Positions 22,053 to 48,062 of a stretch of 64,000 bases of DNA are shown piece after piece. This DNA is from Steroidobacteraceae bacterium (GTDB lineage Bacteria; Pseudomonadota; Gammaproteobacteria; Steroidobacterales; Steroidobacteraceae). Under the pieces are notes generated by a model. The model searched no databases and was not told the DNA's origin. It worked only from the letters and a program-made list of their open reading frames with translations. Every line of letters starts with the position of its first letter. Within the stretch, counting starts at the first letter, position 1. The stretch is from positions 483 through 64,482 of the forward strand of contig DASZSS010000245.1 in the NCBI GenBank assembly GCA_035548535.1, given 5' to 3'. A program made the translations under genes and the position numbers.

Positions 22053-22146
22053 CTCACACGGCGGGTCGCTGCGCTCGTCTTCATCGCTTCTTCACGTCGA
22101 TGCAACGTCCTCATGAGGAAATGCGGCACGGGAAACGGAGACGTGC

Positions 22147-30289: not shown

Positions 30290-30408
30290 CTCGAGCGCAG
30301 CGCAAGTGTGCGCAGTCAGTATGTCAAAGGCTTTTCCACTATGTGACGTGTGAACCGCGAACGTCGGTGCGGCGAGCGACACCGACCCGGCGCGCGCAAC
30401 CAGCAAGC

Positions 30409-30436
30409 AAAAAAAAGCCCCGCCGAGAGGCGGGGC
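30409..30436 (-). terminator. rho-independent terminator
   Basis: On the minus strand it reads GCCCCGCC-TCTC-GGCGGGGC followed by T8. It begins 30 nt after the stop of the coiled-coil gene. Confidence 0.85.
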
Positions 30437-30466
30437 AGTGTCACCGCGGAAGCAACCTAGACAGGC

Positions 30467-31126
30467 TCAAGGTCCGGATGCGGCGGCGGCGGCCGGTGTG
30501 GCCGCAGGGGGCTGTTGATCCGCGGCGCGCGCGCGATACTCGTCGATCAGATTTTCATTCCGATTGCGCGCGATGCGCGTGAAGGGCTCGGCGCGGCCGA
30601 TGCGCGACCAGGCGCCCTCATGCTCGAAGCGGCTCAGCACTTCGTCGTTCAGCTGGTAGAGCGCCATGTTCCGCGCGACGCACGTCGCCAGCTCGCGCTC
30701 GCGCGTCGCGAGCGTTTGCGTCGCGCTGTCGCGCCCCGCTTCGACCTCTTTCAGGGTCTGCACAGTTTCGCGGAACTTGGCGATCAGCTCCTGCATCCGT
30801 TCTTTCGTCTTCGCGAGCTCCGCGGCCGTGCTCTCGCGTTGCCGGTCGCTCGTCAGGGCGTTGGCTTCCGAGGCCTTGATCCTGCGATCGAGGGCCTCGC
30901 GGCTGGATTGCAAGAGGTCCCGCTGCTTCTGCGCCTCGGCGAGCTCGCGCTTCAAGCGCTCGTTTTCAGCCTGCAGCGCCGTGCGCTCGGCGGCGAGCTG
31001 CTGGAGCTGTTGGACGATTTGCGCGTTGGCGCCGGCGGAGCCGCCGCTGCGGGCGGTTTGCGCCGAGACAGCGTGTGCGGCCAGGCAAAGCGACAGCATT
31101 ACCGCCAGTTGCACGGATCGATTCAT
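30467..31126 (-). CDS. secreted coiled-coil protein
   Basis: 219 aa. A strong SD (GAGGAG) precedes the ATG at 31126. The signal peptide is MNRSVQLAVMLSLCLAAHAVSA, followed by long heptad-like Q/E/L/A/R-rich helices. Confidence 0.7.
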   Translation of the reverse strand: MNRSVQLAVMLSLCLAAHAVSAQTARSGGSAGANAQIVQQLQQLAAERTALQAENERLKRELAEAQKQRDLLQSSREALDRRIKASEANALTSDRQRESTAAELAKTKERMQELIAKFRETVQTLKEVEAGRDSATQTLATRERELATCVARNMALYQLNDEVLSRFEHEGAWSRIGRAEPFTRIARNRNENLIDEYRARAADQQPPAATPAAAAASGP

Positions 31127-31137
31127 GAGCGTGCTCC

Positions 31138-32793
31138 TCAGAACTGCGCCGTCAAATCGAGCTGGAGAACGTCGACGCCGAACGGCAGGCCATCGATCTC
31201 GTTGGCGCTCAGATAGCGCAGACGCGTGATCACCCGCGGCGTGAGCGCGTAATCCGCGCCGATGAAATAGCCCTGCGCGTTGGTGCCGCCGAGATGAAAG
31301 TCGGAGTCCGTGAACGCATCGAGCACCGCGTCGCTCTCGAGGTACTTGTAGCCGAAGAACGCCCGCCACCCGCCGTGCATGCCGAGCGCGCTCGTGCCGA
31401 AGCTGATCTCAGCCTGGTAGCCCGTGTCGCGTTTGGGCACGGGGCCGCCGACGCGCGCGGCAACTTGCGCCTCGTCGAACCCGATGTTGCGGACCGCATC
31501 GCCCGTGATGGACAGGCGGTAGCTCGGCGACAGTTTCCAGTCGTACGCAATCGTGACGTCGGCGAGCCGATAGGCCGCGGCAAGCGCCAGCAAATTGCTG
31601 GTGTTCGGGTCCACGTCGGAGTCGACGCGGATGTCGAACAGCGTATTGCCCTTCTGCACGAACGGCGGCGCCGTGTAGTCCAGCAGATTGCTATCGAGCG
31701 TATTGCGCCGGCCGGTGATGTTTTCGTAGTCGTAGTAGGCAAGCCCGAGGCGCAGACCGCTGCCGCCGGAAAACTTCCAGTGCACGCCGAGCTGCGCCCC
31801 GTACAGCCACTTGTCGTTCTTCGACAGCTCGATTTCCTGCAGCGGAAAGGCCCCCGCGGTGAGGAACACGTAGTGCGAATCGGGATCGTCGCGCGCAAGG
31901 CCGAGCCGATAGCTCGCGGCCACACCGTCGAAAGTCAAATCCGGATCCCACACGAGGTCGGTCGAGAGCCACGGATTCGCAATGCGGCCGGCCGATACAC
32001 TCAGCGCGTGCCGGCCGGTGCTACTCCTCCCCAGCCACCCCAGGTACGCGAGATCGAGTCCGGTCTGATAGCGCGCGCCGTAGGTGCCGAGCGTCTGATT
32101 GGTCGAGACTGGATCCGTGAGATTGCCGGTGGCCAAGCGCCCGCCGAGCGACCAGCCCCAGCCGAGCTCCGCGTTGAACCCGAGCCGCAGGCGCGCGCGC
32201 AGCCGCGCGCGATCCTCGGTCGTATTGAGAAACGCCCCGAGCGCGCCGGCTTTTTGGATCCCGCCTTTGCTGTTGATGGCGTTCACGTCCTGATACGTTT
32301 GTGGCAGGTTGTCCGACGCGAACAGGTCGCCCTGACCGCGGACGCGCACATCACCGCTCCACTTCATGCGCTGAACCCAGTCCGGCATCGCCCCGAGCAC
32401 GCCCAAGCGATCCGCCTTCGCTTCTTCGATCACGCCCTGCGTAATCTGCGGCGTGACTTCCGCCACCACCTGCTTGCGGATTTCCTCTTTGACGATCTCC
32501 GGGACGTACGGCACGCGCACGGCACCGGCGTCGGCCTTCTCTTGCGCCTCCGCCGCCGCGGCTGCGGCCGCAGCCTCGCTCGCCGCCTTGGCTTGCGCGC
32601 TCGCGACCATCGCCTGCGCCTGCTCGCGTGTCACCACGCCTCTCTCAACGAGCGTCTCCAGCAGATTGATCACCGTGTTGCGCAGCTCGCTGAGACTCCG
32701 CTCTTCGGCGGATTGCGCGGCGGAGGCGGCCTGGATCGCGGCCAACGGTGAGAGCACGGCGAGCGCGAGGATTCGTTTCGACTGACGCGGCAT
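31138..32793 (-). CDS. porin-like outer-membrane beta-barrel with N-terminal helical extension
   Basis: 551 aa from the ATG at 32793. The signal peptide is ..AAIQAASA, followed by a ~125-aa Ala/Glu-rich helical segment and then alternating beta-strands. The C-terminus ends LDLTAQF (terminal Phe). Confidence 0.7.
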   Translation of the reverse strand: MPRQSKRILALAVLSPLAAIQAASAAQSAEERSLSELRNTVINLLETLVERGVVTREQAQAMVASAQAKAASEAAAAAAAAEAQEKADAGAVRVPYVPEIVKEEIRKQVVAEVTPQITQGVIEEAKADRLGVLGAMPDWVQRMKWSGDVRVRGQGDLFASDNLPQTYQDVNAINSKGGIQKAGALGAFLNTTEDRARLRARLRLGFNAELGWGWSLGGRLATGNLTDPVSTNQTLGTYGARYQTGLDLAYLGWLGRSSTGRHALSVSAGRIANPWLSTDLVWDPDLTFDGVAASYRLGLARDDPDSHYVFLTAGAFPLQEIELSKNDKWLYGAQLGVHWKFSGGSGLRLGLAYYDYENITGRRNTLDSNLLDYTAPPFVQKGNTLFDIRVDSDVDPNTSNLLALAAAYRLADVTIAYDWKLSPSYRLSITGDAVRNIGFDEAQVAARVGGPVPKRDTGYQAEISFGTSALGMHGGWRAFFGYKYLESDAVLDAFTDSDFHLGGTNAQGYFIGADYALTPRVITRLRYLSANEIDGLPFGVDVLQLDLTAQF

Positions 32794-32837
32794 GACAGAA
32801 GGTCCGATCGATTCTCGTAAGTTGTTGTGCGGGCAAA

Positions 32838-33485
32838 TCAAGTGCGGGATGCGATGCGGACGCTCACCGGCTGAGGCATGTCCGCCGGCGGCGGCTGCGC
32901 GGTCCGGCAGCGGCGTTCGAACGCGGTTTCGAGCGCGCGGTCGCGATCGCGATCGCCCGTGGACTGCGCGAGGTGCGCGCGTTCGATCGATCCGTCCGCG
33001 CGCAGCCAGAGCTGCACGAGCACCGAATAGCTGCCGCCCTTGCGCACGGCTGCGTCGTCGTCGAGACAATCGGCGATCGCGCCCTTGAGCACGCCCGCAT
33101 ACCACGCGTACGCGCTGCCGCCGGAGGCAAGCAGATCACGCCCGCCCTTGCGCCCGACGAGCCCGAAGCCATCGCTGCCCGCGCCGCCTTCGGCATCGAG
33201 GCCGAGTTGCTCGGCCGGCGGCGGCTCGTCAGACGGCGCCGGATCGGGCTGCGGCTCGGGCTCGTGAACGTCTACATGTTCTTCCGGCGGCGGTGGCGGC
33301 GGCGGAGGTGTCTCCGGCGGCGGCGGCGGCCGGATCACGTGTATTTCCTGCACGACCTTCTTCTGCGGCACCGCCGCCGTCAGGATCATGTGGCGAACGA
33401 ACAGTACCGCACCCACGCCGAACAGCACGATGATCAGCGCCGCGCTGAGCGCGAACTTCACGGTCGCCGCGCGTTTCGCATCCAC
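32838..33485 (-). CDS. TonB-family energy transducer-like protein
   Basis: 215 aa with a GTG start. It has an N-terminal TM (FALSAALIIVLFGVGAVLF), a Pro-rich spacer (PPPPPETPPPPPPPPEE...PEPQPDPAP) and a TonB-C-like C-domain. Confidence 0.65.
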   Translation of the reverse strand: MDAKRAATVKFALSAALIIVLFGVGAVLFVRHMILTAAVPQKKVVQEIHVIRPPPPPETPPPPPPPPEEHVDVHEPEPQPDPAPSDEPPPAEQLGLDAEGGAGSDGFGLVGRKGGRDLLASGGSAYAWYAGVLKGAIADCLDDDAAVRKGGSYSVLVQLWLRADGSIERAHLAQSTGDRDRDRALETAFERRCRTAQPPPADMPQPVSVRIASRT

Positions 33486-33496
33486 GACGCCGCGCC

Positions 33497-33907
33497 CTAC
33501 TTGACGAGCTTCTGCGTCACGAGCCCGAGCTGCGTGATCTCGAGCCGGCCGACGAGATCGAGCACGTCCACGACGCGCTGGTACGGAATGGACGCGTCGG
33601 CTTTGATGATGACCGGCAGCTCGGGATTCGCCGCCTTGTACTGCCGCAGCAGGTTCTCCAGCTCCGGCAGGGTGACGGGAAACGTGTCGAGGTAGATCGT
33701 GCCGTCGGCCGTGATCGAGATGGCTTTGGTCTTGTTCTCCGCAAGGCTCGGCTGCGCGCTGGCCTTCGGCAGATTCACCTTGATTCCCTGGACCGTCGCC
33801 GTCGTCATGATGATGAAAATGACGAGCAGCACGTACGCGAGATCGAGCATCGGCGTGATGTTGATCTCGTCGTAGACGTCCTTATCGCCGCTCCCGGCCG
33901 CTGCCAT
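33497..33907 (-). CDS. exbD: ExbD/TolR-family biopolymer transport protein
   Basis: 136 aa with GAGGAG upstream. The family-typical block is INITPMLDLAYVLLVIFIIMT...VNLPKA. Confidence 0.85.
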   Translation of the reverse strand: MAAAGSGDKDVYDEINITPMLDLAYVLLVIFIIMTTATVQGIKVNLPKASAQPSLAENKTKAISITADGTIYLDTFPVTLPELENLLRQYKAANPELPVIIKADASIPYQRVVDVLDLVGRLEITQLGLVTQKLVK

Positions 33908-33917
33908 CGCACTCTCC

Positions 33918-35741
33918 TCAGGAATAGGTTTCGGCGATGCGCGTCACGAATTCGTCGACGAACACGCGCATGTCGGCGGTGATCTCGCGCACCCGCGTGT
34001 TCAGGTAGTTGTAGCCGAACAGGCAGGGAATCGCGACGCCGAGGCCGGCGACGGTCGCCACCAGCGCGGCGGCGGTGCCCGGCGCGATGGCGTTGATGTT
34101 CACTTCGCCCGAGGCCGCGATCGCCGCGAACGTGATCATTACGCCGACCACGGTGCCGAGCAGACCGAGGAACGGCCCGCCGGCGATCGAGATCGTCAGC
34201 CATACCATCCGCGCGCTGAGCTTCTGCGTCATGCGCACGAGCGACGCATCCAGGGTGGCGCGAATCGCTTCGATCGACTGGGCCGAGAGCGATCGCACGC
34301 GATCCGCGCCCGCGGCCTGTCCTTCCAGACGCCGCATGACTTCGAGGATGCCGTGATGATAGAGCGGATAGATCGTCGAGCCGCCGAACTCTTCGGATGC
34401 GCCGTCGCTCTCGAACACCGATCGGTCGGCGGCGGCGCCCGGCTGCTGGCCGAGACGCTTTTCGAGCGCGGCGGGATCTTCTTTCAGCTTGTGAAACTGC
34501 GCGAGAAACAGCGCGTTGCCGCGCGCGACGCGATTCAGGAAGAGCATCTTGGACAGCATGATCAGCAGCGACGCCACGAACATCACCGCGAGAATGCCGA
34601 TCACCACCCAGCCGTCGACCGTGACGTTGCGCAGTGTCGACGAGAAGTAGGACTCGCTCGCGCCGCTGTCCTTCTGCATATCGCCGCCGTACACGACGAG
34701 CGGCGCGACTATCCCTTGGCTGACGGCGGCCGCGCGAAGCCAGTCGGTGCTGCGTCCGACGTTCGACACCTGCAGTTCGTCCAGCTCGCCGCTGAAGTTG
34801 TGGCCGCCCTGCGCAGAGCCGCCGATCGTCAGCGTGCCACCGATCTCGGGCAGCGTCGCTTTCGCGTTGGCCGCCTCGACGCCGTCGATCAGCAGCGTCA
34901 GCGTCCCTGCGGCGGCACGCACGGCGAGGTGATGCCAGTCGCCCGTCGCGAACTCCGCGTCCACCGACACGGGGCCCGTGCCGCCGTCGATCTGCGCGAA
35001 CGCGCGCGTGCCGTCGAGACCGAGGATCAGCGACTTGCCGCCGTCTTCCAGCGCCGCAACGTATGCGCGCTGCTGGGGGCCGGCGGTGCGCACCCACGTG
35101 GAAAGCGTGAACCCGTTCGCCGGCACGAGACGCACGGCGCTCGAGGGCTTCACGGAGATCACTTGCGATCCGGAGAAGCGCACGCCCGCGTTGATCAACG
35201 ATGCGGGCGTCACTTCGGCTGAGAACGCCGCGGGCTCGGTCTTGTAGTCCGTCGCGTCCTGCGGGCTCGTGGCCGGCGGCCCGAAGTGATACACGAGCGC
35301 CATGTGCGTGTCGTAGATGCCGGACGGCGTGCCGGCCTTACCGCTCTTGTTGCCGTAGTAGAGAAAGATCTTGTCGGTGTTCACGCCGCCGGTCAGGCGC
35401 GGCACCTCCACCCAGATGAATGCAAGTTGCGCTTGAGGGTCGTACCGCTCGATCCGGTGCCGGAGAGGCGTCTTGTCATCGCCCGCGACGAAGCGCAGAT
35501 CGCCGCCGTCGGGCGCCGTGTCACCGAAGTAGCCGAAGTTCCCGAGACTCAGCCGGATGAGCACCGGCACATCCGCCGGGCTCCCCGGAATGTCGGCGCC
35601 GCTCTTGGAGAGATCGAGTGTGATGTCCTTGCGGAACGCCCAGTCATCGTTCCACCACGCGCGCGCGCCGGGCGCAGCTCCGAGTCCGACCAATACGAAA
35701 CACAACAGCGCGACGACCGCGCCTGGGCGAATGCACGTCAT
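33918..35741 (-). CDS. DUF2341 + LamG-like lectin domain fused to a MotA/TolQ/ExbB proton-channel domain
   Basis: 607 aa. The N-terminus is WWNDDWAFRKDITLD...GGDLRFV...FIWVEVPRL (DUF2341-like). The central LamG_3-like block is FTLSTWVR...GDWHHLAV...LLIDGV...FSGELDELQVSN. The C-terminal TMs carry the ExbB motif GGPFLGLLGTVVGVMITF. Confidence 0.8.
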   Translation of the reverse strand: MTCIRPGAVVALLCFVLVGLGAAPGARAWWNDDWAFRKDITLDLSKSGADIPGSPADVPVLIRLSLGNFGYFGDTAPDGGDLRFVAGDDKTPLRHRIERYDPQAQLAFIWVEVPRLTGGVNTDKIFLYYGNKSGKAGTPSGIYDTHMALVYHFGPPATSPQDATDYKTEPAAFSAEVTPASLINAGVRFSGSQVISVKPSSAVRLVPANGFTLSTWVRTAGPQQRAYVAALEDGGKSLILGLDGTRAFAQIDGGTGPVSVDAEFATGDWHHLAVRAAAGTLTLLIDGVEAANAKATLPEIGGTLTIGGSAQGGHNFSGELDELQVSNVGRSTDWLRAAAVSQGIVAPLVVYGGDMQKDSGASESYFSSTLRNVTVDGWVVIGILAVMFVASLLIMLSKMLFLNRVARGNALFLAQFHKLKEDPAALEKRLGQQPGAAADRSVFESDGASEEFGGSTIYPLYHHGILEVMRRLEGQAAGADRVRSLSAQSIEAIRATLDASLVRMTQKLSARMVWLTISIAGGPFLGLLGTVVGVMITFAAIAASGEVNINAIAPGTAAALVATVAGLGVAIPCLFGYNYLNTRVREITADMRVFVDEFVTRIAETYS

Positions 35742-35780
35742 GTAGTAGTGAACGACCGCGTCCCCTGTCGAGGGAACGCA

Positions 35781-36428
35781 TTATTGGCTGCGCGTGTGAC
35801 GGTCTCGTTGCGAGCGCCGGATCACACCGAGCACGCCGACACCGGACAGCAGCAACGGGAATGCCGCGGGGAGCGGCACGGGCGCCAGATTCAACACGCC
35901 GGAATAACTGCCACCATTCGTTCCGGTGACGTTACCGCGGATCTCGAGCACGTACGTGCCGGGCTCGAGCGTCGTTTCCGGCAGCACCGCGATCGTCTCC
36001 GTTGCGCCGGGCGAAGCGTTGATGGCCGTGCTCCATGCATCGATAGCGCCGCCCACCGGCGCACCGAACACCGGCAGGTTGGGGTTCAGGCTCGCGCTGT
36101 ACAGACGCACTTGCAGATCGCTGATGCCGATCAGATTGTCGAGGCTGATCGTCGAGGTGAGCGAATTCGCCTCGGCGCCCGTGATGCTGAAGACCAGATC
36201 GTCGTAGAAGCCATATCCCGGCGCCTGCGAGAGTGGCGTTGTCGGCGCGGTGAACTGATTGAAGTAGCCGTACGAACCGGGTACCGCGAGCGCGTTGACG
36301 GTGCCGGGACCCGTCGTACCGTCAGCGGTCGTCGAGTAGCTGATGACGGCGGCTGCCGCCGGTTCCACCCACGCGAACGCGACCCCTGCAACGATCGCCG
36401 CGGCCGCCACACTCATTCTTATAGCCAT
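35781..36428 (-). CDS. PEP-CTERM sorting-domain protein
   Basis: 215 aa from the ATG at 36428, preceded by GGGGA. It has a signal peptide. The C-terminus is LAPVPLPAAFPLLLSGVGVLGVIRR. Confidence 0.8.
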   Translation of the reverse strand: MAIRMSVAAAAIVAGVAFAWVEPAAAAVISYSTTADGTTGPGTVNALAVPGSYGYFNQFTAPTTPLSQAPGYGFYDDLVFSITGAEANSLTSTISLDNLIGISDLQVRLYSASLNPNLPVFGAPVGGAIDAWSTAINASPGATETIAVLPETTLEPGTYVLEIRGNVTGTNGGSYSGVLNLAPVPLPAAFPLLLSGVGVLGVIRRSQRDRHTRSQ

Positions 36429-36533
36429 GAGATTGTCCCCTGCACCGTCCAAGTCTCGAATTCGGTGCAGATTGAACGTAATTCATGACGCTGATGAGAC
36501 AGTCATATGAAAAAGAGCAGGTCGCGATGCCGC

Positions 36534-39500
36534 TCAATGCGCCGTCGTACTGCGCTTCAAGCATTCCGCGTCGCTCGGCTTGCACACTTCGGCACCGAAG
36601 CCTTCGATGAACACGTCGAGCCAACCCAAAGCGGCGTCCGCGAGCGACGGCGGCTGCTGCGTGCTCGCCGTTTCGGTGACTGCGGCGCTCGAAGCAGACG
36701 ACGCGCTGCTCGCGACGGCCGAGACGCTCGACAGCGAGGCGCCGAGATTGCTCACTTCGGCCGGAACGCCCGCGGAACTCCCGCCCACTTGAATGTTGTC
36801 GAGGCCGACGACCTGCTGTGCGGCGACGTTCAGATTGCCCGCCGCACCGATACCGGCGTCACCGGCATTCACGATGCCCTGTGGCGCAATGAGATCGACG
36901 TCGCCCGCCTTGACGGCCGGGTTGGTGACGATCGAACGGATACCACTGCCCGCCACGGCGCCCGCGAAATTCACGGACACGTTGCCCTTGTCGTCGACGG
37001 TGATCGTCGGCGCCGGCGCGGACACGGACGACTTCGAGCCGCGGCCCGCGTCGATGTCGCCGGTCGTCGACCAGATCGCGATATCACCCCCGCCCAAGGT
37101 GAACACGCGTGAGGAATTCACCAGCACGTCACCGTCCGCGAAGATCCGCACGTCGCCCGCGCCCTGCGCGACGATGCCGAGCTCGGAAGGCAGGCGCGTC
37201 GGCGCGCCGGCCGGCGGCACGGCAAGCCCCACGTCGACGTGTCCGCCCGGCGCGAGCAGCGAAATCGTGCCGCCCGCCAGCGTGTAGATGCGGCTGAACG
37301 CAAGCAGCACATCTCCCGAGTATGGAGATTGCTTGTCGTCGCCCGTATCGCGGCTGCCTGGGAAGAGCTTATCGATGGCCGCATAGCCGCGTGCGAAGTT
37401 CGTCGAGGGATCCGTGTTCGCTTCGCGGCCGGCCCGCACCAGCTCGGTGAAGAAGTCGGTGAGGGTTTGCGGCGCCACCTTCGTCTGCGGGTCGTACTCG
37501 GGTAAGACACCAGCGAGCACCGTCACATCGGCGCCCTGCTCGCTCTCGATCGCGGCATTGGCCAGCCGACCGGTCGTGGAGATGCCCTGCGAGAAGCCGA
37601 GATCGACGTTGCGTCCGGCAATGACATCGAGCCGACCCGGTCCGCCCAGTTCGAAACGGCCGTTGTTGTTGGTGGGGAACTCGATGTCGCGCCCCGCAAA
37701 GACCAGCGTCTGCGCGTCCGGCTGGAGATTCTGATTGCGCAGAATCAGGTCGACGACATCGCGATCGGCGGTGACGCGCGCGGCCTTCGGCAAGACGTAC
37801 TGGCCGGCAAGCACATCGCGGCCGGCTGAGATCAGCGCGGGTTGCGCATCGTCGACGTGGCGCGCGCTCGGCGTCTGGCTCAGCAGATCAACGGTGTTCG
37901 GAAGCGCATTCAGCGGTGTCGGCAGCGCGCGGGGTGCGCTGTCCAGCATTTGCAGCAGCGCGTTCGAAGCGACATCGCGCGCGGCGAAGAGATCGAGCTG
38001 ACCGCTGTCCGACGCGTACATGAACGGTGTCCCGCCGAGTTTCACGTCATGCGAGAGCGAGCGCAACGACACGCTAGCGGGCAACATCGTGAGCAAGCCC
38101 GCGCCCGAGCCATCCACGATGCTTTCGCCCAGCAGCGCCTTCAGCCGGTCGCTGTCCGCCGCGAGATTCACATCCCCGCCCATGCTCTGCACGTCGAGCG
38201 CGGATCGTTCGCCGTACGTGAAGAAGTACGACGGAAGGTTCTGCACCTGATTCGTGCCGATCTGCTTCAGCATCGTCGAATTGAACGCGGACTCGAGGAA
38301 CACATCGCCGCGCGCGGTGATATCGACCTGCGCGTCGCCGATCGAAAGCACACTGCCGAGCATGTCGCCGAACTCCGATGCACGCGTGCGCGCCAGCGAT
38401 CCGCCGGCCTGGATGCGATTGACGCCGGCCGTCATGTGCAGCAGCGAGCTGGCAACGTCGTGGCCGGCATCGATCGTCATCACACCGCCTTGGCCGCGAT
38501 TCAGCACCGTCTGCGAGCTCTGGTAACCCGAGTCGGCCGTCGCGGCAGCGATCTCGCGCACGTCGCCGCCTGCACGAATCGTGAGATCGCCCCCGCCGAG
38601 CGTCCCCGCATTCCAATGGAACTGCTGCACCTCGACGCCCCAGCGCACCGGATCCGTGTCGTTGCCGACCCGCCGCTGCCACGCGGTCACGGGTTGCGAC
38701 ACGTCGTTGCCGACGATGTCGCCGCCGGCGTCGAGCGTGAGTGCGCCGCCGCCGGTGGGCATCGCCATGAAGATGCGACTCCGCGTGTCAGCGAAACCGG
38801 GCAGGTTCGCGTCGAGCTGGCCGCCCGTATACACCGTGGCGAACGCTGCGTCGGAAGTCGTCGTGAAGTTGATGTTGCGGGCCGCGCTGAACAGCAGGTC
38901 GCCGGTGCCCGTGCGCACCGTCGCGTCCTGAATCGTGATGTCGCCCGCGAGCGAACGATCGACCGCCAGCGGATTGGCGCTCGCGAGCGAGGCGCCCGCT
39001 GCGAAACGCAGCGTCGTCGAGCGCTCGCTCAGCGGGTCGAGCCGCGTCGCCGCGCCGGTGCCGGTCGCTTTGAAGCCGTCGGAAATCGTGCCGTTCGAGA
39101 GGGTGATCGAGCCGGTGGCGCGCACCGTCAAGGCGCCGGCCTCGCGCTGATCGCCGAAGCGCCAGGTGCTGAAATCAACGCCGCCATCGAGGGTGACGTC
39201 CCCGTTTACCCGCAGCTCGACTCCCGGCTGTATGTGCAAAGGAGTTTCCGCCGGGGCGCCAAGCCGCGCGCGAATGTCCGGAATCGCGGCCGCGAACGTG
39301 TCGAGCCTCTGGCGGTAGACCTCGAGGTCAGCGCTCGTGAGGAACGATGGCGCGTCATCGACGGCGATCACGGGTTCGACGGTGACGCTGCCGACGCCGG
39401 TGAACGTGCCCGCCGCGAGACTGCCAACGGCGACCTCCTCGTTGCCGCCCGGCTCGGTGACGACGTTGGCACGCTGGAGGACATGGCCGTTCTCGTTGGC

Positions 39501-42500: not shown

Positions 42501-45500
42501 GCCGGGGGTGGCGGTCGGCAGAACGCTGCCGGGCTCGTGCGAATAGCCGAGCGCGACATACGGTGCGGAGACCTTCACTGCATCGCCCGCCGCGATGTCG
42601 ATGACCGGCGAATCGACGATGAGCTGCCGGCCGAGCGCGAGATTCACGCCCGCATCGAAGCTCACTTGGCCGCCCGAGCCGATCGCGGAGAAATCGCTCG
42701 CCCGCAGCGTCAGCGAATCGATGCCGCTCGCCTCGATGCGATCCATGCTGAGGATCGCCTGGCCGTCGGGCAGACTCGACCCAGTGAATGCGTCCGGCAC
42801 GATGCGAATCGTGCGGGTCGCCGTCGGAAACGTGCCGATGACCGCGGGATCGGGGGCCTGGAATTGTGAATCGCGCGTCAGCTCAACAGTCAGCGATCCG
42901 CCGGCGGCGCGACCGGCGATCGTGTCGCCGGTGCCGACGTGCGCCGCGAGATCGCCCGCGATCAGGATCGACTCGGGCGCGTGCAGCGTAATGTCGCCGG
43001 CGGCGCTCGCGACTGTCTGTCTCGTGTAACCCGTTGCCGAGCGAGCGTCCGCGATGTCGAGCACCCCGGACGTTCCCGAGACATCGAGCTTCGAGCCTCG
43101 TTGCAGATCGACCGAGCCGCGCTGCGCGATCAGATTGATCGCTCCGCCGGCGAGCACGTCGCCGACCTGCAAGCCCGAATCGTTCGGCCGCAGCAGCGTC
43201 GTGCCCGACGCGTCGAGGATCGCGGTCGACGTGACGTTGATGCGCAGATCGGGAATGTAGCCCGGGTCGAGGCTCTCCGTCGGTCCCGGCGTGATGCCGG
43301 CCGTGATCGTGCCGCCCGGCGTGACGATTTGCCCGGCGAGCGTGACGCCCCCCGGGGACTCAAACGTGAACGACGAACGCGCGGGACCGCGAATGACGGC
43401 GTTCGACTCGACCGTGACCTGGCCGAGCTCGGTTTTGGTGGTCACACGCGGCTGCGCGCTGAACGTGACCGACGATGCGGGCCGGTTCCATTCCAGCGGC
43501 GTAGTCAGCGCGCTGAAGCCGTCGATCGTGCCGCCGCTCGCGCGAGTCGTGAGATCCGCAGCGAGCGCGATAACGTTCGTCCGAGTGTCGATGATGCTGC
43601 CCGACTTCACCGTCAGCACGTTCGTCGACGTCTCCAACGGGGGCGAAGTCGCCTCCGGTACGAACGGAGTTCCGTCCGCGATGATGTTGAACGTCGTGAA
43701 TCCGTGTCCCGAGAACAGCTCGTCGCCCAACTGAATCGCGCTCGCGCTGGTCTTCTCGGTCGAGTCGAAACGCTGCGCGGCCGCCCACTCCGAGCCGTGT
43801 GTGATATCGATGCGCGCGCCCGTAAACGTGAGCTTTCCGCCACTCGCGCCCAGCACGCCGAAGCCTTGCAGACCGACGTTCTCGCCGATCTCGACGACGC
43901 CGTCGGTCAGGTTCGCGCGCTGCGCATTCAAGCTGATGCTGCCGCCCTTGCCGGCGGCCAGCGAGCCATTCGACTTGAGCCACGCCCCGCCGTTGGCAAT
44001 CAACTGCGAGTTGTCACCGAGCGAGAGGGTCGCGGCGACGTCGTGGCTCGCCTGATCGTCGAAGAACGTCTTCGCGTTCAGCGCGATGCTGCCGGCATCG
44101 ACGCGAATGGGGTGCGTGTTGTCGATGAGGTCGTTCGTCCAGAGGCCGCTGACGTTGAGCACCGCGTTCGCGCCGAGAAACACGCCGGCATCGGGCAGCT
44201 CGACATCCGCGATGCCGATCGTGCGGTCCGAGGTCAGATCGATCGTGCCGCCGAGCGAGGTGATGTTGCCGTCGACGTTCACGCGGCGCGCCAACACGCT
44301 GAAAGCGCTTCCCGGCGTGAGATCGAGCGGTGTGGACGCCGGCACCGTGACCGTGCCGTTGCTGTAGATCCGCGTCGAGGTGAAGCCGCCGGCCGTCAAA
44401 TAGTCCGTGGACAGCGCGAGCCCTTGCTCGCCGTTGACGATCGGCTCGTCTTCGTCGAGCGGATCGCTCGGCGCCTGATTCACGAACGTGACGGACGGCG
44501 CGCGATAGTCGCCAGGGGTTGAGGTGGGCGGCGTGGGCGTGCCAATGACGAGCGTACCGCCGGCGGCGGCTAGCTTCGCATTCCGCTGCAGCGGACCCTG
44601 ATACACCTCGCCCTTGAAGGTGCCGCTCAACACCATATTCGGCGCGGCGAACTGCAGCATGCCGGCGTCCGCGCCCTGCAAGAAGCTGTCGACGAAGTTG
44701 CCTGTGCCGGGGCCGCGCACGTTCTCCTTCACGCCCCAGCGGTCGTACGTCAATTGAACGGTCGGATTCACCAGCCCGACATACTGCTTGTTCGGATCGG
44801 CGCTGCCGATGTCGACGATCTTGCCGTCGGCGCCGATGAGCTGTGTGGTCTGCACGACGCCGGGCGCGTACGTGACGATGCCGCCCGACACGTCCATCTT
44901 CGCGCCTTGGGCCACACCGACATCGCCCTGCGAATTGATCGAGATGGTGCCGCCTTTGGATGTGCGCTCGGCAATGTTCTTCGGAATCGCCGCGATGGCG
45001 CCGGAGACGTCCGCGAGCGGCGTACCCGTGCGCACGTCGACGTACACCGTCTTGCCGCGCAGAAAGCCGTCGCGCTGTACGGGCGAGTCTTTCAGCTCGT
45101 TCGCCCGCAGCTCCACCGCGACGACGGCGCGGGAGGCGGGCAACGTCACATCGCTTCCCGAAACGTCGATCGTCGTGCCGTCTTCGATGCGCACGCGCGA
45201 GTCCGGATCGTAGCCACCCGCGGGCGCGGAAGGGTTCGACAGTGCGGTGATGTTGACGGCGCCGCCAGGCGCGACGATCTGCGTGCCGCCGCGAAGCGTG
45301 ACGTTGCGGCCCATGATCTCGACGGTCGACGGATTCTGCTTCTGATCGTCGACCGCGGTCGTCGTATCGGCCAACTCGGGCAGGATGCTGATGGAGCTGT
45401 GCGCTCCGAGCTCGACGGTGCCGGTGCGAGCCGTGTCGAGCACGACACCGCTCGAATCGTTGCGGATCGACACGGTGTCGCGCGCGAGTAGACGCACGCT

Positions 45501-46346
45501 GCCGTTGGCCGACACGCTCGTCGTCGCGGTGGCGCGGCCCTCCTGGTTCACCGCGAGACCCACGAGCGACACGTTGCCGCGCGCTGCGCTGATGTTGCCG
45601 CTGAGTCGGTTCGCGGCTTCGCCGCCGCCATCGACTTCCACGAGCAAGCCGCGCAGCGACGCATCCGAGCTCGAGCTCAGATAGATCTTCTCGCCCGCCG
45701 CGAGAATCACCTGCCCATCCGGCGCGGTGAGCGTGCCCTTGTTCTCGACATCCGGGGCCGCGAGCAGAATGCGTCCGCCCGCGCCCGTCGTCGCGATCTG
45801 CGCGCCCTGCTCGACGACGAGATCGCCCGAGAGCACTTTGCCATCGGGTCCGACCGCCGCCTTCAAGGCCGCCTCGTGTTTCTGCACGGCAGACAGAATG
45901 CCGCCGTCGAACACGGAGTCGTCCATGTTCAGCGTCGATGCGAGCAGGCCAGCGGTTTTCACCTGCGCCGTCGCACCGAACAGCATCCCGTTCGGGTTGA
46001 CGAGATAGACCTGACCATTCGCTTCGAGCGCGCCGAAGATCCGGCTCGGTGCGGCGTCGTAGATCTTGTTGAGCGCGACCGACGATGCCCCGGGCTGCTT
46101 GAACGTGACGCGTCCATCGGCGCCGATGTTGAAGCTCTGCCAATTCAGAATGGCTTTGTCGGTGCTCTGAGTCACCGTGAGCGTGTTGCCCGCACTGATG
46201 GCGCTGGCCTGTCCGGACGTGACGAATCCAATGTTCGGTCCGCAAGAGCCGCCGACGCACGCGACGGGCAACTCGGCGGCATGTCCGGCGCCCGCGGCGA
46301 CTTCCAGAGCCGCCGCCGTCAGGACGAGGCTGATCCGTTGATCCAT
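36534..46346 (-). CDS. two-partner-secretion exoprotein (filamentous haemagglutinin-family TpsA)
   Basis: 3270 aa. The N-terminal TPS domain reads LTVTQSTDKAILNWQSFNIGADGRVTFKQP...VYLVNPNGMLFG. The body is a long beta-helical Gly/Ala/Thr/Ser-rich repeat region. The start lies 6 nt after the tpsB stop, with an AAGGA SD. Confidence 0.9.
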   Translation of the reverse strand: MDQRISLVLTAAALEVAAGAGHAAELPVACVGGSCGPNIGFVTSGQASAISAGNTLTVTQSTDKAILNWQSFNIGADGRVTFKQPGASSVALNKIYDAAPSRIFGALEANGQVYLVNPNGMLFGATAQVKTAGLLASTLNMDDSVFDGGILSAVQKHEAALKAAVGPDGKVLSGDLVVEQGAQIATTGAGGRILLAAPDVENKGTLTAPDGQVILAAGEKIYLSSSSDASLRGLLVEVDGGGEAANRLSGNISAARGNVSLVGLAVNQEGRATATTSVSANGSVRLLARDTVSIRNDSSGVVLDTARTGTVELGAHSSISILPELADTTTAVDDQKQNPSTVEIMGRNVTLRGGTQIVAPGGAVNITALSNPSAPAGGYDPDSRVRIEDGTTIDVSGSDVTLPASRAVVAVELRANELKDSPVQRDGFLRGKTVYVDVRTGTPLADVSGAIAAIPKNIAERTSKGGTISINSQGDVGVAQGAKMDVSGGIVTYAPGVVQTTQLIGADGKIVDIGSADPNKQYVGLVNPTVQLTYDRWGVKENVRGPGTGNFVDSFLQGADAGMLQFAAPNMVLSGTFKGEVYQGPLQRNAKLAAAGGTLVIGTPTPPTSTPGDYRAPSVTFVNQAPSDPLDEDEPIVNGEQGLALSTDYLTAGGFTSTRIYSNGTVTVPASTPLDLTPGSAFSVLARRVNVDGNITSLGGTIDLTSDRTIGIADVELPDAGVFLGANAVLNVSGLWTNDLIDNTHPIRVDAGSIALNAKTFFDDQASHDVAATLSLGDNSQLIANGGAWLKSNGSLAAGKGGSISLNAQRANLTDGVVEIGENVGLQGFGVLGASGGKLTFTGARIDITHGSEWAAAQRFDSTEKTSASAIQLGDELFSGHGFTTFNIIADGTPFVPEATSPPLETSTNVLTVKSGSIIDTRTNVIALAADLTTRASGGTIDGFSALTTPLEWNRPASSVTFSAQPRVTTKTELGQVTVESNAVIRGPARSSFTFESPGGVTLAGQIVTPGGTITAGITPGPTESLDPGYIPDLRINVTSTAILDASGTTLLRPNDSGLQVGDVLAGGAINLIAQRGSVDLQRGSKLDVSGTSGVLDIADARSATGYTRQTVASAAGDITLHAPESILIAGDLAAHVGTGDTIAGRAAGGSLTVELTRDSQFQAPDPAVIGTFPTATRTIRIVPDAFTGSSLPDGQAILSMDRIEASGIDSLTLRASDFSAIGSGGQVSFDAGVNLALGRQLIVDSPVIDIAAGDAVKVSAPYVALGYSHEPGSVLPTATPGFGRLDVSAGQLDLIGTLAFQRVGHATLSSSGDLRLVGVIDGAASTGRLDASGELTLAAARIYPTTLTDYTVNVAGDKKNTLRIAQNGTSPGAPLSAAGSLHLSADEIVQGGTLLAPFGKIALDATDSVELLAGSTTSVSAKDALIPFGSIQVGSGTEWVYTLGGNVIAQDAIPERNVSISAPDVSMASGSTVDVSGGGDLYAYSWTPGTGGSKDALAASETPGLYAVIPGFAGLGTGDPQEYLSSDLQVGDSVYLGGGGGLDAGVYTLLPARYALLPGAYLVHAVSGFNDLQPGKTVSLPDGSTVVAGYRTFANTALGDTRYSGFAVNSGSFGRKMATYEDFKASEFFPAQAALSDSKARTALPADAGALSIAVTHSLAANGNVRTSAGEGGRGASIDISASHLEVTSGQQSSASENAVQIDSAVLASWNPGSLLLGGKRASDGSIAVTADTISFLSGSALSLNEVVAVANDGITVASGAQVSSKSAGTSDPAPVLTESQLKLTGDAAVLALSDTSDFTVDRTDGTDTGGGHVEVATGGRVASRGALLLDAPDGAQLNGTFDGLGATWTLASRRVALADETVDGGITLTSSLLDALQQGSAVRLQSRGAIDFMTSVSLGNAADPNASLLKSLTLSAATLGASDTVTVDLAAQSIVLAGKATDTDSPLATGAATLRLTGADVEIEDGALNLAGFGATTLRSTGALIAKGDSTLRTPGALELSAGRITTGTGAEASFESGDIVRVTRAGADPGASAAMELGGALSISGKQVEVSGNIVLPSGQISLRSDGDLSILTGATFDVSGVDVTAGGRTVSSSGGLIDMIAGGTLTAASGALLNVSGGGDQNGGALSLEAKGEVSIEATLRGTAGASARGASVLLEADSLRDFASLNSLLEAGGFAERRAIHVTRGDLELARGATLTARDVELTTDEGSIRIAGTIDADSDNARGVINLFAGGNITLQNGGVLRSEGAAGLGRGGLITLGSSNGFVSLLGGSTIDTLGANENGHVLQRANVVTEPGGNEEVAVGSLAAGTFTGVGSVTVEPVIAVDDAPSFLTSADLEVYRQRLDTFAAAIPDIRARLGAPAETPLHIQPGVELRVNGDVTLDGGVDFSTWRFGDQREAGALTVRATGSITLSNGTISDGFKATGTGAATRLDPLSERSTTLRFAAGASLASANPLAVDRSLAGDITIQDATVRTGTGDLLFSAARNINFTTTSDAAFATVYTGGQLDANLPGFADTRSRIFMAMPTGGGALTLDAGGDIVGNDVSQPVTAWQRRVGNDTDPVRWGVEVQQFHWNAGTLGGGDLTIRAGGDVREIAAATADSGYQSSQTVLNRGQGGVMTIDAGHDVASSLLHMTAGVNRIQAGGSLARTRASEFGDMLGSVLSIGDAQVDITARGDVFLESAFNSTMLKQIGTNQVQNLPSYFFTYGERSALDVQSMGGDVNLAADSDRLKALLGESIVDGSGAGLLTMLPASVSLRSLSHDVKLGGTPFMYASDSGQLDLFAARDVASNALLQMLDSAPRALPTPLNALPNTVDLLSQTPSARHVDDAQPALISAGRDVLAGQYVLPKAARVTADRDVVDLILRNQNLQPDAQTLVFAGRDIEFPTNNNGRFELGGPGRLDVIAGRNVDLGFSQGISTTGRLANAAIESEQGADVTVLAGVLPEYDPQTKVAPQTLTDFFTELVRAGREANTDPSTNFARGYAAIDKLFPGSRDTGDDKQSPYSGDVLLAFSRIYTLAGGTISLLAPGGHVDVGLAVPPAGAPTRLPSELGIVAQGAGDVRIFADGDVLVNSSRVFTLGGGDIAIWSTTGDIDAGRGSKSSVSAPAPTITVDDKGNVSVNFAGAVAGSGIRSIVTNPAVKAGDVDLIAPQGIVNAGDAGIGAAGNLNVAAQQVVGLDNIQVGGSSAGVPAEVSNLGASLSSVSAVASSASSASSAAVTETASTQQPPSLADAALGWLDVFIEGFGAEVCKPSDAECLKRSTTAH

Positions 46347-46352
46347 AGGTCC

Positions 46353-47939
46353 TTACCAGCTCGAGCGAACGACAAAGAGAATGCGGGAGTCCCCCGCCAA
46401 GGTGCGCGAGCCGTCGACGAGCGGATCCGCCCACGCGAGCGAGGCGCTGAAATGGTCGAAGGCGTTGAAGTTGAAGCCCACGCCCCAACTGCGCAGATCC
46501 TCGTTGCGGCCTTCGTCGGGCAGCGGCTCGATGGTCGATACCCGCCCGGCGTCATAGAAGATGAAGCCGGTCGTCTGCGTCTTACCGTCGAACAGCGACC
46601 ACGCGGGCGATTCGAGCTGCAAAGTGGCCTTCGCGCCGATGTCGCCGAGCGCCTCGGCCTCGAGATAGCCGCGCACGCCGTCCGCGCCGCCCATCGCGAA
46701 CTGCTCGTTGCCGATGATCGGCTCGAGAGAATACTGACCCGCGAGGCTCGCGAGCAGCGAGAAGTCCCGGTACAGGAGCTTGCGCACGGCGATGTTGCCG
46801 CGGAAGTAGAAGTAGTTCGGCCGCCCTTTGAAGCGCTTGTCGGCGAACTCCCGCGAGGAGTTGCCGAGGCCGCGCGGGCCGAAGTTGAACGATGAGCTCT
46901 CGGTGAGCTGCAACCGGTCCCAGCGCCACACGCCGGACTCGCCGAGCGACAGATTGACGTAGCCGATGGGCGTGCGGAACGAGGAGTCGTCGTCGAGCGC
47001 GATGCTCTCGAGAAAGTCCTTGTACTCCACCCCGAGCGTCAGCGTGTGCGACGACTCCGCGCTGTTGACGAGCGGCAGGATCAGGCGCGAGCCGTAGACC
47101 TTGCCTTTACCCAACACCGCGAGCGTGCCGAGGGAGGCCACGTCGCTGTCGGAGTCCACGAAGTACAGCGCGAGGCGGCGCCCTTCGCCGAGATAGTGCG
47201 TGTAGCTCGCGACCAGCACGCTCAGCTCGCTCAACTCCTGCGGGCTCGTCTGATACTGCAGCGAAATGCTGTCGAGGCGATTGAAGAGATTGTCGTAGCT
47301 CAGACTGGCGAGCGCGCGGAGCTGCGAGGTATCCGCGGTGTACTGATTGTTGACTTCGAGCGAGCCGTGCAACGGCAAGTGGTCGTTGACTTTGAGCATC
47401 AGGTCCACGGTGCCGGGCACCGGACCTGCCTTGAGCACGGGAACGACGGCGCGATCCGGCGTTTGCGTGTTGAGGATGGAGATCTGGTGCTGCAGGGCCG
47501 GCAAATCCGGCGCGGTGTCCGCTTCGGCGGCCGGCAGGGCCGCGCGAATCTGTCTGCCCGAGAAGTACCGTGCGCCCTGCACGCGCACTTGCCGCAGCCG
47601 ACCTTCAGTCACTTTCAGGCGAACGATGCCGCCCTCGACATTCTGTTCGGGCACGTCGACGTACACCGTGCCGCGACCTGCGGCGTGGTACGCCTGTTCG
47701 AGCGCCGCGCGCGCCGCCTGCACGTCCTCGATCGATTTATCCGGGCCGAGAAACGGATAGACGGCGCGCTCGACGTCGATCTGCGGCAGCAGTGTGTTGC
47801 CGAGCACGCGATATTCGAGCACATCGAAGCGGGCTTCGGCCGGCGCGCCTGAATCCGAGGCGCCGAGCACTGGCAGACAGACGACTGAGCCGAGCAGCGC
47901 GGCAGCGATGCTTCCGCGCCGACGCGCGAGGTACGACAT
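46353..47939 (-). CDS. TpsB (ShlB/FhaC/HecB-family) outer-membrane secretion/activation protein
   Basis: 528 aa with a signal peptide. The POTRA-like N-terminus is FDVLEYRVLGNTLL...IVRLKVTEGRL, followed by a C-terminal beta-barrel ending FVVRSSW. Confidence 0.85.
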   Translation of the reverse strand: MSYLARRRGSIAAALLGSVVCLPVLGASDSGAPAEARFDVLEYRVLGNTLLPQIDVERAVYPFLGPDKSIEDVQAARAALEQAYHAAGRGTVYVDVPEQNVEGGIVRLKVTEGRLRQVRVQGARYFSGRQIRAALPAAEADTAPDLPALQHQISILNTQTPDRAVVPVLKAGPVPGTVDLMLKVNDHLPLHGSLEVNNQYTADTSQLRALASLSYDNLFNRLDSISLQYQTSPQELSELSVLVASYTHYLGEGRRLALYFVDSDSDVASLGTLAVLGKGKVYGSRLILPLVNSAESSHTLTLGVEYKDFLESIALDDDSSFRTPIGYVNLSLGESGVWRWDRLQLTESSSFNFGPRGLGNSSREFADKRFKGRPNYFYFRGNIAVRKLLYRDFSLLASLAGQYSLEPIIGNEQFAMGGADGVRGYLEAEALGDIGAKATLQLESPAWSLFDGKTQTTGFIFYDAGRVSTIEPLPDEGRNEDLRSWGVGFNFNAFDHFSASLAWADPLVDGSRTLAGDSRILFVVRSSW

Positions 47940-48033
47940 GTTCTGGGTCCCGTCTCAACGAGAAAGTGACCGGCCTTCTCGGGGCCGCCCGTCGCGGGAG
48001 TATTGCAACGGTTCTTTTTGTTTTTGTGACGGG

Positions 48034-48062
48034 CCAAAAGGGCCGACCCTCGCGGGCCGGCC
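48034..48062 (-). terminator. probable rho-independent terminator
   Basis: On the minus strand it reads GGCCGGCCC-GCGA-GGGTCGGCC (9-bp stem with one G-U pair, GNRA loop) followed by CTTTTGG. It lies 15 nt after the stop of the PstS-like gene. Confidence 0.55.

Follow-up and report, generated by a model that had tools for sequence, protein, structure and literature searches.

An eight-gene envelope unit with a Ton/Tol-type motor

We analysed a 64,000-nt stretch of a Steroidobacteraceae genome (contig DASZSS010000245.1; the window, in whose coordinates all positions are given), centring on a run of eight genes that joins a two-partner secretion (TPS) pair to a Ton/Tol-type motor and an outer-membrane porin (Table 1). 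In the direction of transcription, the unit encodes TpsB, a giant TpsA, a PEP-CTERM protein, an ExbB fused to a periplasmic lectin-type domain, an ExbD subunit, a TonB/TolA-like protein, a Porin_5 protein and a secreted coiled-coil protein. Open reading frame (ORF) listing and domain scans placed all eight genes in one run on the minus strand, with gaps of 6 nt (tpsB/tpsA), 105 nt (tpsA/PEP-CTERM), 39 nt (PEP-CTERM/exbB fusion), 10 nt (exbB/exbD), 11 nt (exbD/tonB), 44 nt (tonB/porin) and 11 nt (porin/coiled-coil). The common strand and all seven gap lengths reproduce a preliminary description of this DNA, and Pfam and NCBIfam scans agree with the gene identities it proposed; it had spoken of nine genes, and its own list and seven gaps make eight.

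The same description had called the unit terminator-bracketed, which stood for one end. Downstream, the unit closes on a textbook terminator with an all-GC stem, the sole convincing one of the region, where a scan returned 13 terminator-like sites against 11.1 ± 3.1 in shuffled sequence. Internal terminators were considered and rejected, the site count being no higher than in shuffled sequence and none of the sites having a proper U-tract. Upstream, the GC-rich hairpin between tpsB and a gene for a secreted PstS-like protein is real and stable, but it was not flagged by the terminator scan because just four U follow the stem, and can count as no more than a weak terminator or attenuator. Nor is this edge clean, because related loci and Pseudomonas also have a PstS-like gene in this neighbourhood. 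About 40 window ORFs, among them every ORF of at least 600 aa, were scanned with Pfam and none had a Plug or TonB_dep_Rec domain, in keeping with the earlier statement that neither the unit nor the window encodes a TonB-dependent receptor.

Table 1. Features of the unit and its upstream edge, in window coordinates
Feature	Coordinates	Strand	Basis
Secreted PstS-like protein (PBP_like_2)	48077-49441	-	Pfam E 2.9e-8, above gathering cut-off
GC-rich hairpin followed by UUUU, between PstS-like gene and tpsB	48034-48062	-	-30.2 kcal/mol, z -3.9
tpsB	46353-47939	-	ShlB, POTRA_2, Omp85 (Pfam)
tpsA, 3270 aa	36534-46346	-	TPS domain residues 49-283, DUF3739 residues 3086-3196 (Pfam)
Putative periplasmic disulfide anchor of TpsA, Cys3255-x6-Cys3262, GFGAEVCKPSDAECLKR	36561-36584	-	sequence, relatives
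FxDxF-family VPLPA/PEP-CTERM protein	35781-36428	-	NF038126, TIGR03370
DUF2341 + Laminin_G_3 + MotA_ExbB fusion	33918-35741	-	Pfam, transmembrane scan
ExbD/TolR-type subunit	33497-33907	-	Pfam ExbD, E 3e-31
TonB/TolA-like transducer	32838-33485	-	Pfam TonB_2; TIGR01352
Porin_5 (PA0696-type)	31138-32793	-	Pfam E 2e-165
AVRVPYVPE motif in Porin_5 stalk linker	32497-32523	-	alignment A1 and AlphaFold2 model
Secreted coiled-coil protein (PA0697-type)	30467-31126	-	signal peptide and generic coiled-coil matches
Intrinsic terminator closing the unit	30409-30436	-	8 GC pairs, loop 4 nt, U8; fold z -3.2

A seven-gene core is conserved across proteobacterial classes

We collected 79 loci carrying relatives of the ExbB fusion (one genome per species) and 80 metagenome loci carrying relatives of the porin, added one further look-up with pre-computed Pfam labels, and searched the window proteins against all collected loci, about 160 in total, by tblastn. 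A core of seven genes, encoding TpsB, TpsA, the DUF2341/LamG-ExbB fusion, ExbD, the TonB-like protein, Porin_5 and the secreted coiled-coil protein, recurs in about 160 loci of Gamma-, Beta- and Alphaproteobacteria. The locus set includes Pseudomonas, Pollutimonas (Betaproteobacteria), one Hydrogenophilaceae genome, one Acetobacteraceae genome (Alphaproteobacteria), Kangiellaceae and Cellvibrionaceae, and the nearest relatives are Steroidobacteraceae; the cluster is present in the Steroidobacter/Peristeroidobacter loci L033, L037 and L039. ExbD lay near the ExbB fusion in 74/74 loci and Porin_5 in 49/49, and TPS genes were present in 43 of the 46 loci with at least 9 kb either side of the ExbB fusion and in 53 of the 58 with at least 6 kb either side of the motor/porin core. 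Gene order varied, with the arrangements tpsA-exbB-exbD-tonB-porin-CC (CC, coiled-coil), tpsA-porin-CC-exbB-exbD-tonB and motor-porin-CC...tpsB-tpsA, and with tpsA-x-tpsB-exbB-exbD-tonB-porin-CC in Pseudomonas. Because the neighbourhood is kept while the order is permuted, the linkage appears to reflect function and not inheritance alone. The co-occurrence of the DUF2341-ExbB fusion, this porin and TPS genes, which the preliminary description had put forward as a check on its reading, is thus conserved across classes. Judged by gene neighbourhood, the motor has a dedicated, conserved association with Porin_5, the coiled-coil protein and a TPS pair of the PdtA type (named after the Pseudomonas aeruginosa genes discussed below), and the module is ancient and widespread and appears independent of Pseudomonas regulators. 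Some loci have TpsA-Porin_5-coiled-coil with no motor inside 10 kb, and others have the porin between tpsA and the motor, ahead of the motor (L126, L133 and L150, also L003, L004, L005, L010 and L013). A genome may use a single motor for more than one adhesin-porin module.

Further genes recur around this core. A DsbC gene lies in or beside the unit in 26/159 loci, a TPR-GT41 gene (Glyco_transf_41, HMW1C family) beside tpsA or the motor in 19/159, a gene of a related 516-aa PstS-like family in or beside the unit in 18/159, to which the window gene 48077-49441 is added, and a TPR-GT9 gene in or beside the unit in about 7/159. A PhoD phosphatase gene stands immediately upstream of exbB in L006, L080, L082, L089 and L160; L082, L089 and L160 hold a PhoD-motor-porin-coiled-coil set with no TPS gene within 7–10 kb. 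The recurrence of DsbC, GT41, PstS-like and PhoD genes in the unit is new here.

The PEP-CTERM gene is no such recurrent member. Its product scores 64.4 bits against NF038126 (cut-off 50) and above cut-off against TIGR03370; a homologue is found in 3/49 loci, usually past the coiled-coil gene, and tpsA is directly followed by exbB in 19 loci, with a gap of 67–338 nt. By this comparison it is a lineage-specific insertion between tpsA and exbB and stands outside the conserved core. The C-terminal PEP/VPLPA motif, transmembrane helix and basic tail and an exosortase in the genome, which mark PEP-CTERM/XrtA sorting, concern the inserted gene alone and not the motor unit. XrtA (Exosortase_EpsH plus DUF3485) is encoded at 12799-14394, and genes for Poly_export, an outer-membrane protein and Wzz lie immediately downstream of the unit, as they do in 26/59 loci, all of them gammaproteobacterial and including the distant L045, L046, L052 and L055. 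With one such gene inside the unit and the others adjoining it, the motor could handle PEP-CTERM cargo or the exopolysaccharide (EPS) of the XrtA locus, as was first suggested. However, no XrtA/EPS neighbourhood accompanies the Pseudomonas, Pollutimonas, Hydrogenophilaceae or Acetobacteraceae versions, the PEP-CTERM homologue is rare and usually outside the unit, and a strong terminator stands between the unit and the EPS genes. Synteny largely refutes this coupling, and we consider it very improbable.

The core has a counterpart in Pseudomonas aeruginosa

Compared gene by gene, in sequence and in position, the core of the unit is almost certainly the Steroidobacteraceae counterpart of P. aeruginosa pdtA-pdtB-exbB2-exbD2-tonB4-PA0696-PA0697. 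There, PA0690-PA0697 comprise pdtA, phdA ("similar to transposase"), pdtB, exbB2, exbD2, tonB4, PA0696 ("putative outer membrane porin") and PA0697, whose product has a signal peptide (PMC4971064). The phdA promoter, which is switched on at low phosphate and requires both PhoB and sigma-VreI, drives phdA, pdtB, exbB2D2, tonB4 and PA0696-PA0701 (PMC4971064), and PA0696 and PdtA rank with the most strongly enriched proteins when phosphate is limiting (PMC9769906). The function of the operon is described as unknown (PMC4971064; PMC7035377). The arrangement itself is not new: the cluster has been noted in the literature since 2009, when the association of TPS genes with exbBD and PA0696 in other genera was reported (PMC2729926), and the window unit is a further member. 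Our literature search on the function of PA0693-PA0697, DUF2341 or Porin_5 returned regulon lists and evolutionary mentions only.

For pairwise comparison we used the P. paraeruginosa locus L075, in which a DUF772 transposase-like gene occupies the place of PA0691 (phdA). The C-terminal 320 aa of TpsA matched the PdtA-like protein at 39% identity over 319 aa (E 2e-49), and TpsB was 36% identical to its counterpart, within a range of 35–38% over 92–100% of its length for the Pseudomonas gene just upstream of the ExbB fusion. Identities were 40% over 98% of the length for the ExbB fusion (38–41% over 95–99% across Pseudomonas), 56% for ExbD (53–60%) and 38% for Porin_5 (34–38% over 93–99%). The match of the TonB-like protein to the gene in the corresponding position was weak (26%, E 2e-5), as was that of the coiled-coil protein to the gene after the porin (E 1e-5); the latter protein found matches in six Pseudomonas-type loci, five from Pseudomonas and one from Paucimonas, and has a conserved C-terminal region of the form C...Y...E.L..(F/Y)E...EPF. 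Its assignment to DUF3450 (TtpB of Vibrio TonB2 systems) or to the CpoB TolA-binding family was rejected, the matches being sporadic, sub-threshold and set amid coiled-coil noise.

In Pseudomonas the cluster is adjacent to vreAIR. An alternative is that the unit provides a cell-surface signalling system with its outer-membrane and energy arm, in which TonB4 and PA0696 could supply the missing energised outer-membrane element and TpsA serve as a contact sensor. Homologues of tpsA, tpsB, exbBD and PA0696 accompany PUMA3 (vreAIR) clusters in several genera, and cell-surface signalling normally involves a TonB-dependent receptor (PMC2729926). Set against this, no extracytoplasmic function (ECF) sigma, anti-sigma or VreA-like gene is present among the scanned window ORFs (the Steroidobacteraceae loci were not searched for such genes), and the core is conserved without vreAIR-type genes, leaving a signalling role, which would suit Pseudomonas but not the window, improbable. 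VreA is reportedly a receptor-like protein without a barrel.

A Ton/Tol-type motor with a periplasmic lectin-type domain

By Pfam and transmembrane (TM) scan, the ExbB fusion has a cleavable signal peptide and a DUF2341/LamG region of ~350 aa facing the periplasm (about residues 29–375), followed by a three-TM MotA/TolQ/ExbB domain. A PDB sequence search with the periplasmic domain gave marginal neurexin LamG matches only. The top NCBIfam match of the fusion is TolQ, at 102.6 bits against a cut-off of 221, and both ExbB models miss their cut-offs (exbB 54.7 bits versus 206; exbB2 56.9 versus 135). The ExbD subunit behaves similarly, missing every cut-off with 92.7 bits for TolR (127) and 68–70 bits for ExbD (123–216), and keeps the TM aspartate, in TPMLDLAYV. 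The TonB-like protein consists of one N-terminal TM anchor, a spacer of 41% proline and a TonB_2 C-terminal domain that passes TIGR01352 (31.2 bits, cut-off 27.1), while the TolA model reaches 19 bits against a cut-off of 59. In a homologue with 57% identity, AlphaFold2 (AF2) predicts an alpha-beta-beta-alpha-beta fold for this domain, with a pLDDT of about 90. A histidine in the anchor helix is indispensable in TolA (PMC7066135).

An ordinary spare Ton system for receptors encoded elsewhere, with the TPS adjacency incidental, would suit the Ton-type domains, and many genomes do have several Ton systems. It is hard to reconcile with the linkage to Porin_5 and TPS genes across classes and order permutations, with the unique periplasmic LamG extension of ExbB, with an anchor lacking S-x3-H and with the missed ExbB/ExbD equivalog cut-offs, and we think it highly improbable.

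Porin_5 carries a conserved motif in a predicted disordered stalk linker

Porin_5 has a signal peptide, and its AF2 model (pLDDT 78.8) predicts long periplasmic helices over residues 29–141 and a 16-strand barrel without a plug. Its top fold match is the stalked porin OmpM1, with a TM-score of 0.71 on the target at about 15% identity, followed by general porins, DcaP, AlgE and OprO. Clustered at 50% identity, the family numbers 452 clusters (E up to 1e-30). Its two best-conserved peptides, ELRNTV[VI]NL and A[VI]RVPY[VI]P[EQ], are both in the stalk. Alignment A1 shows A91, R93, V94 and P98 of AVRVPYVPE to be invariant and P95 and Y96 to be kept in at least 90% of rows, and residues 90–98 have a pLDDT below 50 and are predicted to form a disordered linker. 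The motif is retained from Steroidobacteraceae to Pseudomonas (GEVRVPYIPQ), Pollutimonas and Acetobacteraceae (GTIHVTYIPQ). A loose VRVPYVP pattern was found in 101 of 136 full-length representatives (50% identity), and the eight non-matching representatives listed carry near-variants such as VRVTHVP. New here, on the strength of the model, is the description of Porin_5 as a predicted plug-less 16-strand stalked barrel whose disordered linker holds a VRVPYVP motif common to the family.

Partners of Tol and Ton proteins use short disordered boxes that bind by beta-augmentation (PMC7066135). Because the VRVPYVP segment is short, near-invariant, disordered, beta-prone and periplasmic, like the elements that TonB and TolA bind, we regard it as a candidate TonB/TolA box. 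The E. coli TolB box, EVRIVIDSG, serves here as a lead only. Among the candidates of the preliminary description, gating of the unusual porin fits best, since Porin_5 always comes with the motor and its N-terminal extension bears the family-wide motif. On balance, we lean slightly towards Porin_5 as the outer-membrane partner of the motor.

A natural protein joining the two sequences was also observed. P0115, a 757-aa JGI metagenome protein, links a TonB-like protein to Porin_5 through the porin signal peptide. We rejected it as a Rosetta-stone fusion: it sits on a lone 3.6-kb contig, and translation continues across the junction into the porin signal peptide, in all likelihood because a stop codon was lost.

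A giant TpsA with a putative C-terminal anchor

TpsA has four cysteines in 3270 aa, two of which, C3255 and C3262, stand at its extreme C-terminus, and the tail is conserved as C-x6-C-LKR among Steroidobacteraceae loci. A disulfide loop at the C-terminus keeps HMW1 and HxuA locked in their TpsB, the tail lying in the periplasm, and for HxuA this anchoring is believed to link the release of haem with its uptake through the TonB-dependent HxuC (PMC5422565). The C-terminal Cys-x6-Cys of TpsA, a putative disulfide anchor of the HMW1/HxuA type, is new here. As for its transporter, only some 10 residues separate the predicted signal peptide of TpsB from the first POTRA match, apparently too few to accommodate an N-terminal plug helix and linker of the FhaC type.

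Glycosylation of HMW1 by HMW1C counteracts its release (PMC5422565). No GT41 glycosyltransferase gene is present in the window. Related loci have TPR-GT41 (HMW1C/OGT family) and TPR-GT9 genes between tpsA and exbB (L014 6494-8893, L001 6427-8976, L092 3539-6953), which suggests glycosylation of these giant adhesins in some lineages.

Such features would also suit a motor that acts on the adhesin itself, with proton-driven force, passed via Porin_5, the coiled-coil protein or the ExbB LamG domain, controlling the secretion, retention, release or tension of TpsA. TpsA-Porin_5-coiled-coil is the tightest sub-module, and L126, L133 and L150 have it with no motor adjacent; TpsA has a periplasmic-type C-terminal Cys pair and a conserved DUF3739 C-terminus; maturation of the adhesin is suggested by the recurring DsbC and GT41 genes; the lectin-type domain of ExbB is on the periplasmic side; and the motor subunits score highest against TolQ/TolR. 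The antagonism between HMW1C glycosylation and HMW1 release (PMC5422565) and the Agl-Glt precedent (PMC11761067) point the same way. By contrast, PhoD-motor-porin-coiled-coil sets persist in L082, L089 and L160 without the TPS genes that such a motor would serve. In addition, we know of no energy requirement at the outer membrane for TPS secretion. Direct control of the adhesin is the chief rival to our preferred reading, and we regard it as unlikely.

A motor that may pull on a porin, possibly to acquire phosphorus

The reading we prefer, at a little short of even confidence, is that an anchored adhesin is served by a private Ton/Tol-type motor acting on a stalked porin, with phosphorus scavenging as the probable purpose. 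The ExbB2/ExbD2-like channel would draw on proton flow to exert force on the proline-rich TonB/TolA-like protein, whose C-terminal domain would bind VRVPYVP in the disordered stalk linker of Porin_5 by beta-strand augmentation. Porin_5, a predicted plug-less 16-strand barrel, would stand in for a TonB-dependent receptor, and the pull would gate or reposition it. TpsB would export the giant TpsA, which the C-terminal disulfide knot would hold at the surface as in HMW1/HxuA; TpsA would then capture an external ligand, probably a phosphorus source, and the product would enter through the energised porin by the logic of HxuABC. Extending this, we tentatively suggest that Porin_5 proteins form a second class of Ton/Tol-energised outer-membrane protein, in which a private LamG-bearing ExbB/ExbD/TonB-like motor pulls the VRVPYVP box of a plug-less, stalked 16-strand porin and couples the proton motive force to a TPS adhesin, for uptake or mechanical control.

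Phosphorus scavenging is the likeliest theme because of PhoB control in Pseudomonas, the PstS-like and PhoD genes in the unit and the PhoD-motor-porin sets without TPS genes; taken as a claim of its own, a role of the unit in phosphorus acquisition is possible but somewhat doubtful. The window's PstS-like ORF has its probable start at M68 (MTLSKMTQIG...), giving a signal peptide, and a weak PDB match to a phosphate-binding protein. P. fluorescens SBW25 has a low-phosphate-induced secreted DING/PstS-like protein encoded directly upstream of a 4083-aa haemagglutinin, and LapA and LapB of PAO1 are DING-like (PMC2225411); by position, the window gene corresponds to psp/lapA, which precedes pdtA in Pseudomonas. 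The preliminary description had proposed a motor for something other than nutrient uptake. The lack of a nearby receptor, from which it argued, was borne out; a non-nutrient role is not established, as the recurring PhoD and PstS-like genes and the part played by PhoB in Pseudomonas speak for phosphorus scavenging.

Several observations weigh against our preferred reading. To our knowledge, no plug-less porin is TonB-dependent, and a channel without a plug or binding site cannot concentrate solute. The anchor histidine is indispensable in TonB as it is in TolA, and the TonB-like anchor helix contains no S-x3-H motif or conserved Ser/His, either in the window protein or in a 40-homologue consensus, nor does the protein contain a YP motif. 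AF2 on P0115 folded the TonB C-terminal domain and left the barrel unfolded and the motif disordered; this run used a TonB-only alignment (A4) with the porin part unaligned, as joint MAFFT alignments (A2/A3) scattered TonB rows over the barrel, and it speaks neither for nor against a contact. No motor lies within 10 kb of the TpsA-Porin_5-coiled-coil genes in L126, L133 and L150. The PstS-like assignment is a distant one. Two patterns for the canonical Pho box, with mismatches allowed, gave no site in promoter regions and window totals at or below chance, and the scanned window ORFs include no ECF sigma, anti-sigma or vreAIR genes. Finally, P. aeruginosa tpsA, tpsB, PA0695 and PA0696 single mutants kept VreI-induced virulence in zebrafish (PMC2729926).

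If the motor does work on a porin and not on a plugged receptor, the known roles of Ton/Tol motors would widen, and two-partner secretion would gain an energy-coupled accessory. The P. aeruginosa genes exbB2-exbD2-tonB4-PA0696-PA0697 belong to a phosphate-starvation and virulence regulon and have been called uncharacterised since 2009; the candidate contacts suggested by the window are the VRVPYVP box on the stalked porin and the Cys-knot adhesin tail.

Genes around the unit

Directly upstream of the PstS-like gene, 49546-50394 (minus strand) encodes a second secreted protein with a VPLPA/PEP-CTERM-like tail, VPSVPLPPALWLLGSALVG. About 150 nt upstream of it, 50537-50567 (minus strand) holds three TGTCAC-like repeats in 11-bp phase, CTGTCACggcaGGTCTCTagctTGTCACC, which are reminiscent of a Pho box and insignificant against shuffles.

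On the other side, 29765-30406 (minus strand) encodes a protein without a Pfam family whose N-terminus looks ribbon-helix-helix-like by eye. Because its homologue lies upstream of Poly_export/outer-membrane protein/Wzz in nearly all related loci that have those genes, it is a candidate EPS-locus regulator. The XrtA/EPS region also contains large ORFs with coding-type GC3 and no Pfam family, at 6626-8629 (minus), 18458-19975 (plus), 20247-22052 (plus) and 22111-23463 (minus). Farther out, an IS21-type istA/istB pair at 2169-3794 and 3791-4549 (both plus), encoding an integrase core with a Mu-transposase C-terminal domain and an IstB ATPase, adjoins a DUF4143 AAA ATPase gene at 4972-6204.

Comparison with known systems

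The closest system is PA0690-PA0697 of P. aeruginosa, which shares with the window unit seven protein types, the motor-porin-coiled-coil order, the DUF3739 C-terminus of TpsA, a PstS-like neighbour and an operon without a TonB-dependent receptor. The two differ in order, tpsB-tpsA here and tpsA-phdA-tpsB in P. aeruginosa, and the window unit has no phdA, vreAIR, Hxc secretion system or recognisable Pho box. It has instead an inserted PEP-CTERM gene and an adjoining XrtA/EPS locus, and the C-terminal Cys-x6-Cys loop of its TpsA is absent from the Pseudomonas protein.

Canonical Ton systems share the MotA/TolQ/ExbB channel and the ExbD TM aspartate, although the ExbB/ExbD equivalog cut-offs are missed here; their partner is a plug-containing 22-strand receptor with a TonB box, whereas the linked barrel here is predicted to have 16 strands and no plug. 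The HxuABC system of Haemophilus influenzae pairs a disulfide-anchored TpsA with a Ton-energised outer-membrane channel, as proposed here, and is induced by nutrient limitation, as is the Pseudomonas cluster. Its HxuC, however, is a plugged 22-strand transporter on the general Ton system, whereas the channel here would be a stalked 16-strand porin that lacks a plug and has a motor of its own. Tol-Pal resembles the unit in that TolQ and TolR are the top profile matches of the motor, that the order of motor, outer-membrane partner and coiled-coil protein mirrors tolQRA-tolB-pal-cpoB and that the partner would be expected to bind through a short disordered box. It differs in that scores fall far under the TolQ/TolR/TolA cut-offs and that the unit has no TolB or Pal, an anchor helix without the essential His, a LamG domain on ExbB and a TPS linkage.

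Outside nutrient uptake, the Myxococcus Agl-Glt machinery combines a TolQR-like motor, proteins with a TonB C-terminal domain (CTD), porin-like outer-membrane barrels and a surface adhesin (PMC11761067), but it comprises at least 17 proteins and uses a lipoprotein adhesin rather than a TPS exoprotein; the homology considered is that of the motor and TonB-CTD folds. HMW1A/B/C of H. influenzae matches the C-terminal Cys anchor of TpsA and the GT41 genes beside related tpsA genes in 19 loci, whereas HMW1 systems have no motor or porin and the window no GT41 gene. OmpM1 of Veillonella and DcaP of Acinetobacter share the build of a 16-strand barrel after a periplasmic helical extension; the stalk of OmpM1 ends in a cell-wall-binding SLH domain, whereas that of Porin_5 is without SLH and carries the VRVPYVP motif.

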